A stretch of DNA of 64,000 nucleotides from Escherichia coli (GTDB lineage: Bacteria; Pseudomonadota; Gammaproteobacteria; Enterobacterales; Enterobacteriaceae), in assembly GCF_044647545.1 (NCBI RefSeq), contig NZ_CP172818.1; one strand, written 5' to 3'. Below, piece after piece: positions 5,719-46,026 of the stretch (the stretch's first letter is position 1; the number at the start of each line of letters is the position of its first letter). The position numbers were made by a program, and so were the translations under genes. The notes under the pieces are model-generated. The model saw only the letters and a list, made by a program, of their open reading frames with translations. It searched no databases and was not told the DNA's origin.

Positions 5719-8700
5719 TTTTTCGCCTCCTGAACCTGATCGCGACCTTCATCATCCAGCCAGTTAACGTTCTTCATCTTGCGGATCATGATGAATTCGT
5801 CGCGGTTCGAGCCGACGGTGCCGTAGTAGTTAAAGCCCCAGGCCAGCTGCGCGTAACCGCCAATCATATGCGTTGGTTTCGGACAAACGCGGGTGACCGA
5901 GTTATGAATGCCGCCGCGCATGCCAGTTACTTCCGAACCAGGAATATTCATAATGCGTTCCTGGGCGTGATACATCATGGTCATGCCCGGCGGTACACGT
6001 TGGCTGACCACCGCGCGGGCCGTCAGCGCGCCGTTGGCGTTAAACACTTCCACCCAGTCGTTATCGACAATGGTCAGTTCACGGGCATCGGTTTCGCTGA
6101 TCCAGACAATTGGTCCACCGCGAGAGAGCGTCAGCATTAGCAGGTTTTCACTGTAGGTTGAGTGAATGCCCCATTTCTGGTGCGGCGTCAGGAAGTTAAG
6201 TGCTTTTTCCGGGAAGCCGTTTGGCGGTATCTGGCGCATTTCACTGACGCTACGGGTGTCGATAGGCGGGCGATAAGCCACCAGGCTTTCACCAAAAGCA
6301 CGCATCCACGGATGATCCTGATAGAGCTGCTGGCGTCCCGACAGCGTGCGCCACGGAATTAACTCATGAACGTTGGTGTATCCCGCGTTATAGGAAACGT
6401 GATCGCTTTCCAGACCGGACCATGTGGGGCTGGAGATAATTTTACGTGGCTGCGCCTGAATATCGCGAAAGCGAATCTTCTCGTCCTCTTTGTGCAGCGC
6501 CAGATGGGTATGTTCGCGTCCGGTGATCTCGCCCAGCGCCTGCCACGCTTTGACTGCAACATGACCGTTGGTTTCCGGTGCCAGCGCCAGAATCACTTCT
6601 GATGCGTCAATGGCGGTGTCAATCAGCGGACGCCCCTGTGCCGGGCCTTCACGCTTGGTGTAGTTGAGTTTGCCGAGGAAATCGATTTCATCCTGGGTAT
6701 TCCACGAAATCCCTTTACCGCCGTTGCCAAGTTTGTCCATCAATGGCCCGAGCGAGGTAAAGCGTTCATAGGTAGCAGGGTAGTCGCGTTCCACCGCCAC
6801 AATATTGGGCGCGGTTTTACCCGGGATCAGATCGCATTCGCCTTTGCGCCAGTCGAGCACTTCACACGGCTGGGAGAGTTCTGCCGGAGAGTCATGTAGC
6901 AGTGGTTGTAATACCACGTCGGTTTCTTTGCCAAGATGACCCACGCACAGTTGCGAAAATGCTTTGGCGATACCTTTGTAGATTTCCCAGTCGCTGCGTG
7001 ATTCCCACGCCGGATCGACCGCCGCAGAAAGCGGATGAATAAACGGATGCATATCCGAGGTGTTCATATCGTCTTTTTCGTACCAGGTGGCGGTGGGCAG
7101 AACGATATCGGAGAACAGGCAGGTACTGGACATACGGAAGTCGAGCGTCACCAGCAGGTCGAGCTTGCCTTCAATCGCCGCAGTTTGCCACTCGACTTCT
7201 TCCGGTTTGATCCCGTCGCTGGCACCGAGTTCCTCGCCCTGAATCCCGCTTTCGGTCCCCAGCAGATACTTCTGCATATACTCGTGGCCTTTGCCGGAGG
7301 AACCAAGCAGGTTAGAACGCCAGACAAACAAATTACGCGGATGATTGCTGCCGCTATCGGGTTGTTCGCAGGCCATACGTAAATCGCCCGATTTCAGCGC
7401 CTGGGCGGTGAATTCTGTGGGAGATAATCCGGCCTTGTCGGCTTCAGCTTTAATCCCGAGCGGATTACGCCCCAACTGCGGCGCAGAAGGTAGCCAGCCC
7501 ATACGTTCGGCGCGAACGTTGAAATCAATCAGATGACCGCTGTACTTACTGGCATCGGCCAGCGGTGAAAGTAACTCCTGAGCAGAGACTTTTTCATAGC
7601 GCCATTGGCTGGAATGATTGTAGAAAAACGAGGTGCTGTTCATCTGGCGCGGTGGTCGGTTCCAGTCGAGCGCAAAGGCCAGTGGCAACCAGCCGGTTTG
7701 CGGGCGCAGTTTTTCCTGACCGACATAGTGTGCCCAGCCGCCACCGCTTTGCCCGACACAACCGCAGAAGATCAGCATGTTGATCATCCCACGGTAATTC
7801 ATGTCCATGTGGTACCAGTGGTTAACACCTGCGCCGAGGATAATCATCGAGCGCCCATGCGTTTTATGGGCAGTATCGGCAAATTCACGAGCGATGGTTT
7901 CAATATACTGGCGCGGCACACCGGTAATTTGCTCACCCCAGGCTGGGGTGTACGGTTTGATTTCAGCGTAATCTTTCGCGCTGTTTTCATCTTCCAGCCC
8001 GCGATCGAGGCCATAATTCGCCAGTACCAAATCATAAACGCTGACCACCGGACAGGTGTTGCCATCGGCTAATGTCAGGTTTTTAACGGGCAATTGGCGC
8101 ACCAGGACCGGATTGTGTTTTACGCTACGAAAATGCGGATTTTCAATGCCGCCAAAGTAGGGGAAGGCCACGCCTGCAACGGCATCATGTTGACCGAGCA
8201 GAGTTAACGACAATTCGGTTTCCGTACCGGCGGCAATGGATTCCAGATTCCATTTGCCTTTTTCTCCCCAGCGAAAACCAATCGAACCGTTCGGCACCAC
8301 CAGTTCACCTGCGGTATTAACCGCCACGGTTTTCCACTGCGGATTATTGCTTTCGCCCAGTCCATCCACCAGGTCAGATGCGCGGACCATGCGCCCGGGA
8401 ACGTAGCTGCCGTCGTCGCGAGGTTCCAGCATTACCAGCATCGGCATGTCGCTGTAGCGGCGGCAGTAGTTGATAAAATAATCGCTGGGATTATCGAGAT
8501 GAAACTCTTTTAAAATGACATGGCCCATTGCCATTGCCAGGGCACTATCAGTGCCTTGTTTTGGTGCCAGCCACTGGTCGCACAATTTGGCCACTTCAGA
8601 GTAGTCAGGGGTAATGGCGATGGTTTTAGTGCCTTTGTAGCGTACTTCGGTAAAGAAATGGGCGTCCGGCGTACGTGTCTGCGGTACGTTAGACCCCCAG

Positions 8701-41203: not shown

Positions 41204-41974
41204 TTAGCAAATAATCAATCCTAAAGCACTCATCGTGTTGTCCGTGTTCATACCGGTGTGCCTTTGACAACGGTACTCCTTAGAAACTCTCTTTGGACTG
41301 TTGCCGAAATGTTTGCGGAACGCATAAATAAAATAAGATGTACTCGCATAACCACATTGTTCGGCAATTTTATTGACTGAACCTTCTACGCGTATCAAAT
41401 TTTTTGCGTGCTGCATTCTGGCATCTAAAAGAATCTGTGAGAATGTCGTTTGCTCTTGCTTTAGTTTTTTCTTCAACAGGCTTTCACTGATGTACAGGCA
41501 GTCACAAATATCTTTCAGCTTCCATGGGTGCGCCAGCTTCATGTTGACAATATTTCTCACTTTCCCGGAAACGGATAGCACACCGTTAGTTAATAGTGTA
41601 ATGAAACCTTTGCATGCGGCAAAAATAGACAGGCAAGAAAAAAGCAAAAGTTCTGAAAAATTATGATGATTGCGTTCTTCCGAGTTGAGATAAGCAATCA
41701 TTTCATTAAGCAATCCAGTCGGTACATTTGAAGCACGTAAAAACTTCGCAGGAACAGGCACCGTCACTGTCTGAATGTTAGTGCATTGTAGATATTTTTT
41801 AATGGTATTTTCATTAAATCCGATTTCTTTGAAATGCCGCTCATAAGGTTCAAAATGCGTACGAACAGCGTTATCTACCATCAGGATCTCGCCGTCAGAG
41901 AAGGCGTAATCTTTATCTAAAATGTTAGCGTTGAAGGCATGATGAATAAATATAACAGAACAAACGAGCGACAT
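41204..41974 (-). CDS. ydeO: AraC-family acid-resistance regulator
   Basis: 256-aa ORF with a C-terminal AraC-type HTH; immediately downstream of safA. Confidence 0.9.
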   Translation of the reverse strand: MSLVCSVIFIHHAFNANILDKDYAFSDGEILMVDNAVRTHFEPYERHFKEIGFNENTIKKYLQCTNIQTVTVPVPAKFLRASNVPTGLLNEMIAYLNSEERNHHNFSELLLFSCLSIFAACKGFITLLTNGVLSVSGKVRNIVNMKLAHPWKLKDICDCLYISESLLKKKLKQEQTTFSQILLDARMQHAKNLIRVEGSVNKIAEQCGYASTSYFIYAFRKHFGNSPKRVSKEYRCQRHTGMNTDNTMSALGLIIC

Positions 41975-42048: not shown

Positions 42049-42246
42049 TCAGTCTTGCAAACTATTGATAATGAAATGTGTAAGATCTCTTGCAATGCGA
42101 CCCATTTCTGAAATACCCAGCTGATCAATTGCCGAAAAAATGGCTATCAACGTAAGTGTCAGTAATAAGACAACCACAATTACAGACATGATTTCTTTAT
42201 AGTTGTCTCTTTGCGTGATTTTGTTTTTCACTGTGGTCGCATGCAT
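42049..42246 (-). CDS. safA: small membrane protein, PhoQ-activating connector SafA
   Basis: 65-aa ORF with a single transmembrane helix. Confidence 0.88.
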   Translation of the reverse strand: MHATTVKNKITQRDNYKEIMSVIVVVLLLTLTLIAIFSAIDQLGISEMGRIARDLTHFIINSLQD

Positions 42247-42357: not shown

Positions 42358-42378
42358 TTCTTACAGCTGTAGGCAGAA
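42358..42378. promoter_or_regulatory. EvgA-box-like inverted repeat upstream of safA-ydeO
   Basis: ttcttacagctgtaggcagaa; near-identical to the motif at 45022-45041 upstream of ydeP. Confidence 0.6.
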
Positions 42379-42493
42379 GTTTATATCTTATAGTATGTAG
42401 TCTAATTTAATCCATGTGAGCAAATTGCGCGATAATAGTCAATGAGGAATTCTTCTGCTGTGCGGATGACAGCAGAAGAAATGAGAAGAGGCA

Positions 42494-44773
42494 TTAATTT
42501 GATGGTTCTAATTCAACCGGAATACTTTTATAGCCAGGAATGCCACTTAATGGATCGTGGTTATCAAGTGTTAGCATGTGATTCGATTCTGGAAAATAGG
42601 TCACCAGTGAGCGGTCAGCCATAGGGTAAATGACCACTTTTAATCTATCCATGCGTCGTGAGCTACGTTTACCGTCTGGCGTGAGTGCAATAAGATTAAC
42701 TCTTTCGCCGTTTTTTACACGGCAAATTTTAGCTTGTTTAGCACTCATAAAGACCACATCTCGTTGACCGAATACACCTCGATAGCGATCATCCATACCA
42801 TAAATCGTCGTGTTGTACTGATCGTGGCTGCGTACTGTCGCCATGACCAGTTTACTGTTAAACGCTGAAGAGGGATCTTCTAACAGCCCTTTGCTGGTAA
42901 TGAAATTAGCCTTACCTGACGGCGTCATCCAGCGCCTTTCAGCAGCTGCGTTTATCAGGTGAAAACCACCAGGATGACGGATGCGCTGGTTATAGTCGGC
43001 AAACTCTGGCAGCACAGCTTCAATGTCATTGCGAATGCGATCATAATCTTCCACCAGATACTCCCAGGCTACCACGCTCTGGGGTAGTGCTGCCTGCGCG
43101 ATTCCCGCGACCACTGCACACTCTGATTTCAGCATTACACCGGCGGGTTTTAACACACCACGCGAGGCATGAATCATCGACATTGAATCTTCAACGGTTA
43201 CCGCCTGCGCACCGCTTTTTTGCATGTCAATCTCGCTACGTCCCAGAACCGGCAGAATATAGCTATGCCGTGCGGTCAGCAGATGAGAGCGGTTAAGCTT
43301 AGTGGCTACGTGTACAGCCAAATCTAATTGCGTTAACGGTACAGCGCTCGCTTCCCGATCTGGCATTGCCAGCGCAAAGTTGCCCCCCATGCAGATCAAT
43401 GCTCGAGCTTGCCCCGTACATATTGCTTGCATGCTGGCAATTGCAGCATGTCCAGGTGCATGAGGTGGGGTGAAACCATAGCGCTCACCCAGGCGAGCCA
43501 GAAACTCTGCAGACGGTTTCTCGGTGATACCGACGGTTCGGTCGCCCTGTACATTAGAGTGACCTCGTAGTGGGCAGATGCCCGCACCAGGCTTGCCAAT
43601 GTTACCTTTCATCAACAGCAGATTGACCAGTTGCTGTACATTCTGGGTACCATGTTCGTGCTGAGTGATCCCCATTCCGTAACAGATAATGGTGCGGTCG
43701 GCAGCGGCATATGCATCAGCCAGTTCGGCGATTTGAGTCTGACTTAGTCCAGAAATACGCTCGATATCTTTCCACTCGGAATTGAGAACGTCACGGCGTA
43801 GCTCGTCAAAGCCGACGGTATGCGTTTGAATAAATTCGTCATCCAGCAATGAGGGCCGACCTGCGGCGCTTGCAGCATCATCGCGCTCAATTAACAGGCG
43901 CATCATCCCCTTGAGCAACGCCATATCACCACCAATGCGCACGTTGTAGTAGGCACTGGCCAACTGAGTCTCAGAGTTCGTCAGCATTTCAAACGGGTTT
44001 TGCGGTGCGGTAAATCGCTCCAGGCCACGTTCCTGTAGAGGATTGATGGCGATCATTTTCGCTCCCCGTTTCACTAAAGCGCGCAACGAACTCAGCATGC
44101 GAGGGTGGTTTGTACCAGGGTTATGCCCAATGCAAATGACTAAATCGCATTTCTCAAAGTCTTCCAGCAACACGGTCCCTTTACCTACACCGATACTCGC
44201 TGCCAAACCCACACTGGTCGGTTCATGGCACATGTTGGAGCAGTCGGGGAAGTTATTGCTCCCGTATTCACGGGCAAAAAGCTGATAAAGAAAGGCAGCT
44301 TCATTGGAAGTGCGGCCCGAAGTATAGAATTCAACCTGATTGGGATCACTATAGCTTTGAAGGCGTTCGCCAATTTCGTCGAAAGCTTGTTGCCAGCTTA
44401 ATGGCTTGTAACAGTCGCTGACGGCATCATATTTCAAAGGCTGGGTGAGACGCCCCGCAGCCTCAAGCTCGTGGTCTCCCCAGGTAAGTAATGATTGAAC
44501 CGTATTCTCAGCAAAGAAAGAGGCGTTTACCTGCTTATCCGTGACTTCCCAGGCGATTGCTTTTGCGCCGTTTTCACAAATGTCGAATGACGCACTGTGC
44601 TTAGGATCTGGCCATGCACAACCCGGACAGTCAAAGCCCTCTGGCTTATTCATGTCAAACATGGCAATAACATCCTGGCGTATATCCATCTGCTTACGTA
44701 CTGCATTCGCTACGGATTTAACAGCACCCCAACCACCGGCAGCCCCCTGGTAGGATTCAATTTTTTTCTTCAT
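42494..44773 (-). CDS. ydeP: molybdopterin oxidoreductase-family acid-resistance protein
   Basis: 759-aa ORF, formate-dehydrogenase-like. Confidence 0.92.
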
Positions 44774-45021
44774 CTACTTATCCTGTGTGGAAATGAATTA
44801 TTAGGATTTGAAATAGCGATGATGCACAGTATATACAAAGGGATTATCGTCAATATGGATATATAAGAGTAGGGGACTACTCTCTTTCTATTTTTAATCT
44901 ATTATCGTTAAATAATAGAATGGTATAAATACGATAAGTTAAGCATCATCTCTCATAGTGTTTAAATTAACATGTTTTTCAATATAAAAAATAAGACTCT
45001 GGCGTTAATTGTGCGCGGATT

Positions 45022-45041
45022 TTCTTACAGGTGTAGGATAA
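45022..45041. promoter_or_regulatory. EvgA-box-like inverted repeat upstream of ydeP
   Basis: ttcttacaggtgtaggataa; shares TTCTTACAG[C/G]TGTAGG with the safA upstream motif. Confidence 0.6.
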
Positions 45042-45111
45042 TAGCCTTCACAAAATAATTATCCGCGCAATTTTCGCGAATGGAGCGCATAGACTAAGGT
45101 CAAAATCACAA

Positions 45112-46026
45112 TTATTCATAGATAAAAGTGACACCAATGACTGACTGGACGGTTCCGGCTGCAACCTTGTTTCCTGTTTGTCCATAGGTTGCGCTTAAAC
45201 CCAGAGGTACTTTGCTTTTATTTACTGTCCCCAGGGAGACATTTTCTCCCGTTGCCAGTATTTTTCCATTACGTATCAGAGAGACACCCACTCCCGATGC
45301 TTTTGTTGCATCAGGTGCCGTGTTAGCAAACACTTGTCGGGCACTGTCAGTGGTGGCACCCGAAAGATAAAATGAGAGCTTTTGTTCGCTTGAGCAATAT
45401 ACGCCAAGGGGTATTTCTGCGCTTCCAGGAAAGTCCGGGAGATCCACGGTGACATTACGACTATCAACAGTGCAGCCGCCTGTTGGCATAACAACACTGT
45501 TATTTGAAATAATATTCCACGTAAAATTACGCGGATTTCCGCTTCCTAACGTGGCAATTTTATACATATGAATACGGGCAATAACTTCCCCGGCTTTTAT
45601 GACAACTCCACCGGCCGCCCCGACTGGGGTAATATAGAGTTTTAACGGTAATGGCATCGGTGTCTTATCACCAATATCCAATACGTTGGTATTTGTCGTC
45701 AACGGGAAGGGGTAGGTCACATTATTCCAGTACAGCGATCCCTTATATGACTGTAGAGAGCCTGCGAAAGCTGAGCCTTGTACCAGGTTTATATGATCAG
45801 TGTCGTACCAGCCGCCGTAATCATTCCAGCAACTTATATGCTGAGACAAGTCTACAACCAGATTCTGGCCCGGCTGTATTACAGGGTCGAGATTAACATA
45901 AACAGAGGTTGTACCAGCTCCAATACTTGACCCGCCATCGACATTACAACTGAAGGCAAAAACTTTACCTGCCATTAATAGAAAATAAATACCGAACAGG
46001 ACCTTTATACTGATTGTTTTACCCAT
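45112..46026 (-). CDS. ydeQ: fimbrial adhesin-like protein (FimH-like)
   Basis: 304-aa ORF with a signal peptide, last gene of the fimbrial cluster. Confidence 0.85.

Follow-up and report, generated by a model that had tools for sequence, protein, structure and literature searches.

A predicted EvgA operator upstream of ydeP in Escherichia coli and the long 5' leader of the ydeP transcript

Our analysis indicates that the palindrome located between ydeQ and ydeP is very probably an EvgA operator, which activates the ydeP promoter and directs transcription from a start near position 44956 into a 183-nt structured leader. The original prediction had described the motif as EvgA-box-like, and the assignment as an EvgA box is supported by every sequence criterion that we applied: a 17/18 match to the consensus, recurrence of the same palindrome at other EvgA targets, conservation of the half-sites and a fixed spacing to the -10 hexamer. 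An EvgA site at ydeP is already known, and the prediction is a correct but ordinary observation.

Few E. coli genes are induced by acid as strongly as ydeP, which serves as the standard reporter of EvgS/EvgA activity, and both the docking site of EvgA and the start of the mRNA matter for the building of reporters and for the interpretation of strain differences in acid resistance. For a genome scan the gain is a correct annotation, in which the element is a known operator followed by a long leader and is not taken for a new one. Two minor leads are the fixed extended architecture of six EvgA-box promoters and a conserved structured leader of about 180 nt.

Results

The locus and the position of the motif

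The window is a stretch of 64,000 nt of E. coli DNA (contig NZ_CP172818.1), and its positions 45022-45041 read ttcttacaggtgtaggataa directly in the sequence. Its functional part is an 18-bp palindrome (45022-45039), which does not include the final two bases of the interval. According to the ORF list and to the RefSeq records of other E. coli genomes with identical DNA, the motif is contained in the 338-bp ydeQ-ydeP spacer, and 248 nt lie between it and the ydeP ATG; thus the sequence, the ORF list and the annotation bear out both the intergenic placement and the distance of about 250 nt that had been proposed. All four genes of the neighbourhood, ydeO, safA, ydeP and ydeQ, are encoded on the minus strand (Table 1), and RefSeq annotates ydeP in other E. 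coli genomes as an acid-resistance putative oxidoreductase. The G+C content is 32% in the spacer and 30% in the leader, the value for the window being 49%. A 501-bp query around the site matched several complete genomes at 100% identity, ST648 and FDAARGOS_497 among them, and of the 5426 complete E. coli genomes searched, 5327 contain this region.

Table 1. Features of the ydeP promoter region and EvgA boxes of E. coli K-12 (positions refer to the window)
Feature	Position	Strand	Details
ydeO	41204-41974	-	ORF list; name from K-12
safA	42049-42246	-	ORF list; name from K-12
safA-ydeO promoter EvgA box, first copy	42358-42375	-	TGCCTACAGCTGTAAGAA; 111 nt upstream of safA ATG
ydeP CDS	42494-44773	-	759 aa; regulated gene
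ydeP 5' leader, AT-rich	44774-44956	-	183 nt (178 nt in K-12), 30% G+C, predicted structured
Shine-Dalgarno-like AGGA	44781-44784	-	7 nt upstream of ydeP ATG (44771-44773)
Predicted ydeP transcription start, A of cactATGAGAG	44956 (K-12 1,586,664)	-	-10 offset and published leader 5' end
Predicted -10 hexamer TAATTT	44964-44969	-	52 nt downstream of box; invariant in 11 strains
Alternative sigma-70-like promoter TTAACG-16-TATATT (K-12: TTGAAG-16-TATATT)	44981-45008	-	promoter scan
Alternative promoter, -10 TATATT	44981-44986	-	
Alternative promoter, -35 TTAACG	45003-45008	-	
Invariant TC	44995-44996	-	25-26 nt downstream of box, about -40/-39; within TCTTATT, like half-site core TTCYTA
Invariant CA	45012-45013	-	8-9 nt downstream of box, about -57/-56; 6/6 promoters
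EvgA box, 18-bp imperfect palindrome	45022-45039	-	17/18 match to TTCYTACANNTGTARGAA
Promoter-proximal half-site	45022-45029	-	TGTAAGAA on - strand, TTCTTACA on + strand; perfect consensus match
Central 2-bp spacer of palindrome	45030-45031	.	varies among strains: CC, CT, TC
Distal half-site	45032-45039	-	ATCCTACA here, AGCCTACA in K-12; one mismatch to TTCYTACA
ydeQ	45112-46026	-	fimbrial protein
safA box, K-12			TTCTTACAGCTGTAGGCA
ydeP box, K-12			TTCTTACAGGTGTAGGCT
emrK/evgA divergent spacer box, K-12			TTCTTACGCCTGTAGGAT
frc box, K-12			perfect TTCTTACAACTGTAAGAA; 251 nt to frc ATG
yfdX boxes, K-12			two copies upstream
yegR box, K-12			TTCCTACATAAGTAGGAA

The palindrome and its recurrence at EvgA targets

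Read in the direction of ydeP, the box is ATCCTACA-CC-TGTAAGAA, which departs at a single position from the consensus palindrome TTCYTACA-NN-TGTARGAA. When the pattern TTCYTACANNNGTARGAA was searched with at most one mismatch, only 42358-42375 and 45022-45039 were found in the 64 kb, so that the motif is rightly called a second copy, and the same search returned 0 matches across 100 dinucleotide-preserving shuffles. With three mismatches, or with one 8-mer half-site alone, the number of matches was at the level of chance; therefore the signal resides in the paired inverted half-sites and not in a lone 8-mer. The safA and ydeP sites have 24 nt in common at 92% identity, including 6 nt past the box, and these six further bases are common to ydeP and safA only.

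Three regions of K-12 MG1655 were scanned for the palindrome, with gadE left out, and copies with 0-3 mismatches were found in the upstream regions of safA, ydeP, emrK/evgA, frc, yfdX and yegR (Table 1). A review lists the promoters of ydeP, safA, emrK/evgA, frc, yfdX and yegR, and also that of gadE, as bound by EvgA (PMC8147483). The frc box is perfect and is likewise placed about 250 nt from its ATG, whereas the ydeP site carries one mismatch in the window and two in K-12.

The gene ydeP has been described as a direct EvgA target (PMC8174306, PMC7174508), and its promoter region is bound by EvgA (PMC8147483). The K-12 site is credited to Masuda & Church (2003) and Itou et al. (2009) in the passages of PMC8174306, PMC3720670 and PMC8147483 that deal with it, and the binding of EvgA~P together with the loss of activation upon mutation of the site is attributed to Itou et al. 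(2009) in the corresponding passages of PMC8174306 and PMC8147483.

Conservation among E. coli strains

The spacer was aligned in 11 strains, all of E. coli and among them K-12, O157:H7, ST131 and 536, with 93.8-100% identity to the window. The proximal half-site TGTAAGAA is invariant (11/11), as is the CCTACA of the distal half-site, which is preceded by AT in ten strains and by AG in K-12. Apart from this single half-site difference of K-12, only the two central bases of the box vary. The half-sites are thus more constrained in these strains than the central 2 bp and the nearby hexamers, of which the downstream -35-like one reads TTGAAG, TTAACG or TTGAAA. A variable centre between conserved half-sites is what one would expect of a dimer site at which the protein does not touch the middle. 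Four further blocks of the alignment, AATCCGCGCACAATT, CCAGAGTCTTATTTTTTATATT, ATGTTAATTTAAAC and CTATGAGAGATGATGCTTA, are invariant in the 11 strains.

The K-12 site is orthologous in position and sequence, the two spacers being 98% identical. The window has T at the distal half-site base where K-12 has G, and its allele is the closer one to the consensus; the -35-like hexamer is TTAACG here and TTGAAG in K-12, and the leader of the window carries a 5-bp insertion. Binding of EvgA to the box of this strain is predicted for an allele that these changes in the distal half-site and the -35-like hexamer set apart from K-12.

E. coli 536 carries a truncated ydeQ with a pseudogene annotation (aligned to window positions of about 45069-45125); the similarity to other strains resumes just upstream of GCGCGGAT, so that the ydeP promoter is retained in full, together with its box.

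When a genome set of 100,044 species was scanned with a degenerate pattern of the YdeP N-terminus, one contig only was returned, a contaminant identical to K-12, and the representative genome of E. coli was absent from the results. This contig, JARKOR010000108.1 (13 kb, from a 'Candidatus Nanosynbacter' MAG), holds in its 1950-2400 region a ydeQ-ydeP spacer identical to that of E. coli K-12, and the presence of this DNA in the MAG is almost certainly due to contamination of the bin.

Promoter geometry and the transcription start

Six K-12 promoters (ydeP, safA, emrK, frc, yfdX-proximal and yegR) were anchored on the box, and offsets were counted from the first base past it in the direction of the gene. 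Common to all six are CA at offset 8-9, TC at offset 25-26 and TANNNT at offset 52 or 53, while ATT at offset 29-31 is found in five of the six. Among 5000 shuffles there were 0 sets with 6/6 either for a common TANNNT window or for any common dinucleotide. TCYTA is found in 3/6 promoters; as signs of secondary low-affinity half-sites between the box and the -35 region, the invariant TC and CA have an apparent support that is inflated by the paralogy of ydeP with safA and of frc with yfdX. The other K-12 boxes (safA-ydeO, emrKY/evgAS, frc, yfdX and yegR) therefore resemble that of ydeP both in the inverted repeat and in the distances to CA, TC and TANNNT.

The conserved -10 hexamer sits at a fixed offset from the box, and this points to a ydeP start near 44956. 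In a study from 2024 the ydeP leader RNA was made with the primer T7+ATGAGAGATGATGC, its 5' end being -178 in K-12 (PMC11210196), and the 5' A of this RNA corresponds to 44956 of the window, coinciding with the predicted start. For gadA, gadB and evgA, the same paper states that the first transcribed base (+1) is where its T7 fusion templates begin (PMC11210196). The 5' end of the ydeP RNA was therefore probably also chosen as the annotated start; the paper is not explicit on this point. Thus we infer the exact start from the -10 geometry together with the primer design of another paper, and a full-text literature search for ydeP and TSS gave nothing relevant as a published report of the start site. 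With +1 at 44956 the box would span about -83 to -66 and be centred at about -74.5, which is compatible with activation from this position, as the original prediction presupposes.

Across the predicted start, the promoters of ydeP (44950-44967, minus strand) and yegR (8338-8354 of the K-12 locus L003, minus strand) have in common the 12-mer ATTTAAACACTA with (T)GAGAG after it (blastn-short, E=0.002); in yegR this stretch lies 5 nt further from the box.

A second possibility is that the same EvgA operator drives a sigma-70-like promoter situated 18 nt further upstream, with a start near 44974, which would centre the box at about -56.5 and make the leader about 200 nt long, and we regard this as unlikely. 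Its hexamers, TTAACG-16-TATATT, are the best consensus promoter match in the spacer, TATATT is invariant in the 11 strains, and the hexamers of K-12 are listed for ydeP, with an H-NS flag, in the catalogue of RNA-polymerase-only ('constitutive') promoters by Shimada 2014 (PMC3946193). However, the -35-like hexamer is the varying one described above, the offset of the -10 (35) is not common to the other EvgA promoters in the way that 52/53 is common to 6/6, and the published leader RNA begins at 44956 and not at 44974; for these reasons the start at 44974 is ranked second. Additionally, the basal activity is reported to be 'very low', which is not what one would expect of a constitutive promoter close to the consensus.

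Of the two options that the original prediction had offered for the long distance to the ATG, a long 5' UTR is the better supported one, since the leader would measure 180-200 nt under either start and 183 nt from the start at 44956. For the other option, an additional promoter, no extra conserved promoter was found in the spacer nearer to the ATG. A promoter-like match at 44901-44929 was rejected in this role, its -35 adjoining a 5-bp indel and reading TTTAAT in K-12 versus TTTATA here.

Discussion

The proposed mechanism of ydeP activation

Our data are consistent with a mechanism in which EvgS senses mild acidity and phosphorylates EvgA, a response regulator of the NarL/FixJ type. A dimer of EvgA~P would then bind the two inverted TTCYTACA half-sites, the centre of which lies about 74.5 bp upstream of the start, and the bound EvgA would recruit or stabilise sigma-70 RNA polymerase at a weak promoter with the -10 TAATTT and no recognisable -35. 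This promoter would sit in AT-rich DNA bound by H-NS, and transcription from near 44956 would yield an mRNA with the 183-nt structured leader ahead of the ydeP ATG. Competitive gel shifts have shown a preferential binding of H-NS to the ydeP promoter fragment (PMC2984483), and ydeP has been reported as an H-NS-modulated gene. The class-I-like mode of activation, as well as any role of the leader, is something we infer.

The closest characterised homologue of EvgA is BvgA of Bordetella, a dimer of the NarL/FixJ type whose target, an inverted repeat of TTTCCTA-like heptads, lies far upstream of a weak promoter. The ydeP EvgA box resembles the BvgA promoters in this placement of an inverted-repeat dimer site far upstream of a weak promoter, and the conserved TCYTATT at about -40 could, by analogy, match the secondary low-affinity sites of BvgA that reach the -35 region. 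Unlike BvgA, EvgA has half-sites 8 bp long that differ at the 3' end (ACA), and its primary site is at a single fixed position.

A tentative and rather doubtful extension of this comparison is that EvgA promoters follow a rigid 75-bp architecture, consisting of the box, 8 nt, CA, 15 nt, TC-NN-ATT, 20 nt and TANNNT, in which the TC of TCYTATT, located at about -40, would provide a second contact of low affinity that overlaps with the -35 region and is read either by another EvgA dimer, in the manner of BvgA, or by RcsB. Such a contact, if true, would account for the lack of a -35 hexamer as well as for the dependence on RcsB. An earlier description of the shared extended architecture is possible.

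Other readings of the palindrome

One could argue that the site, or one overlapping it, is read by another regulator of the NarL/FixJ family, namely RcsB alone or as a heterodimer, and we consider this improbable. The consensus of the RcsAB box is TAAGAATATTCCTA, which shares with the EvgA box the protein family that reads it and the words TAAGAA and TTCCTA, similar words being present in the EvgA half-site. However, the half-sites of the RcsAB box face the opposite way, the arrangement at ydeP is that of the EvgA targets, and no 14-bp RcsAB-like box was found at up to three mismatches between 44774 and 45111 in the ydeQ-ydeP spacer. In favour of RcsB, its loss abolishes the acid induction of ydeP according to the passage of PMC7174508 that cites Burton 2010 and Johnson 2014.

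Even less probable, in our judgement, is a mainly structural role of the palindrome at the level of RNA or DNA, in which it would belong to a compound hairpin that ends the transcripts of ydeQ (fimbrial operon) and would not be a site for a protein. In favour of this, the box is enclosed by the two arms of a GC-rich inverted repeat (45012-45020 / 45061-45069; 9 bp, perfect), a property that sets ydeP apart from the other EvgA boxes, and the 3' region of ydeQ (44985-45107, minus strand) folds into a long compound hairpin (z -2.2), the 3' arm of which, CAGAGUC, is directly followed by UUAUUUUUUAUAUU. Nevertheless, a purely structural role leaves unexplained both the 18-bp consensus at five other promoters that have no such flanks and the conserved half-sites around a variable centre. 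A role in termination could coexist with the binding of EvgA, and the hairpin with its U-tract could be a ydeQ terminator that overlaps the ydeP promoter. Such an overlap was rejected as a feature common to ydeP and safA, as the upstream region of safA does not fold likewise (z -0.97).

Finally, lone half-sites do occur at chance frequency, yet a chance palindrome without function is effectively refuted by the shuffles (0/100 with a site at up to one mismatch), the recurrence throughout the regulon, the selective conservation and the fixed geometry.

The ydeP leader

The EvgA-driven transcript that we favour would begin with a leader which folds with a minimum free energy of -35.5 kcal/mol (z -2.5) into two predicted local hairpins, 44898-44919 and 44865-44884, and a predicted long-range pairing of GAUGAUGC with GCAUCAUC (44943-44950 / 44818-44825). 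The hairpin at 44865-44884 and the 5' arm (GAUGAUGC) of the long-range pairing are invariant in the 11 strains. A 5-bp indel (ATACC/ATACT) at about 44922-44926 is present here and in B2-type strains (ST131, 536) and is absent in K-12, O157:H7 and others. No match to a cis-regulatory RNA was obtained from Rfam at E<=1 in 44600-45200, CsrA does not bind the ydeP leader (PMC11210196), and the literature that we examined contained no description of a leader function.

The hairpin AGAGTAG-GGGA-CTACTCT (44866-44883) scores on the plus strand as an intrinsic terminator, being followed there by CTTTCTATTT, and could stop transcripts antisense to ydeP; on the ydeP strand it is preceded by an A-tract.

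The leader also contains a reading frame (44770-44853, minus strand) of 27-28 codons, which is open in all 11 strains and whose TGA stop overlaps the ydeP ATG (ATGA), a stop-start overlap as in the evgL-evgA coupling (PMC11210196). Its start is ATG in nine of the 11 strains; the window has ATA in this place and only a TTG. The frame was rejected as a leader peptide: it has no Shine-Dalgarno sequence, its substitutions are mostly non-synonymous and the ATG is missing here.

At the other end of the gene, a strong hairpin, UUCUUCUGCUGU-CAUCCG-CACAGCAGAAGAA, lies directly past the ydeP stop codon (42440-42480, minus strand). It is probably the ydeP terminator, and as such it bears on whether ydeP-safA-ydeO forms one operon, as some papers write.
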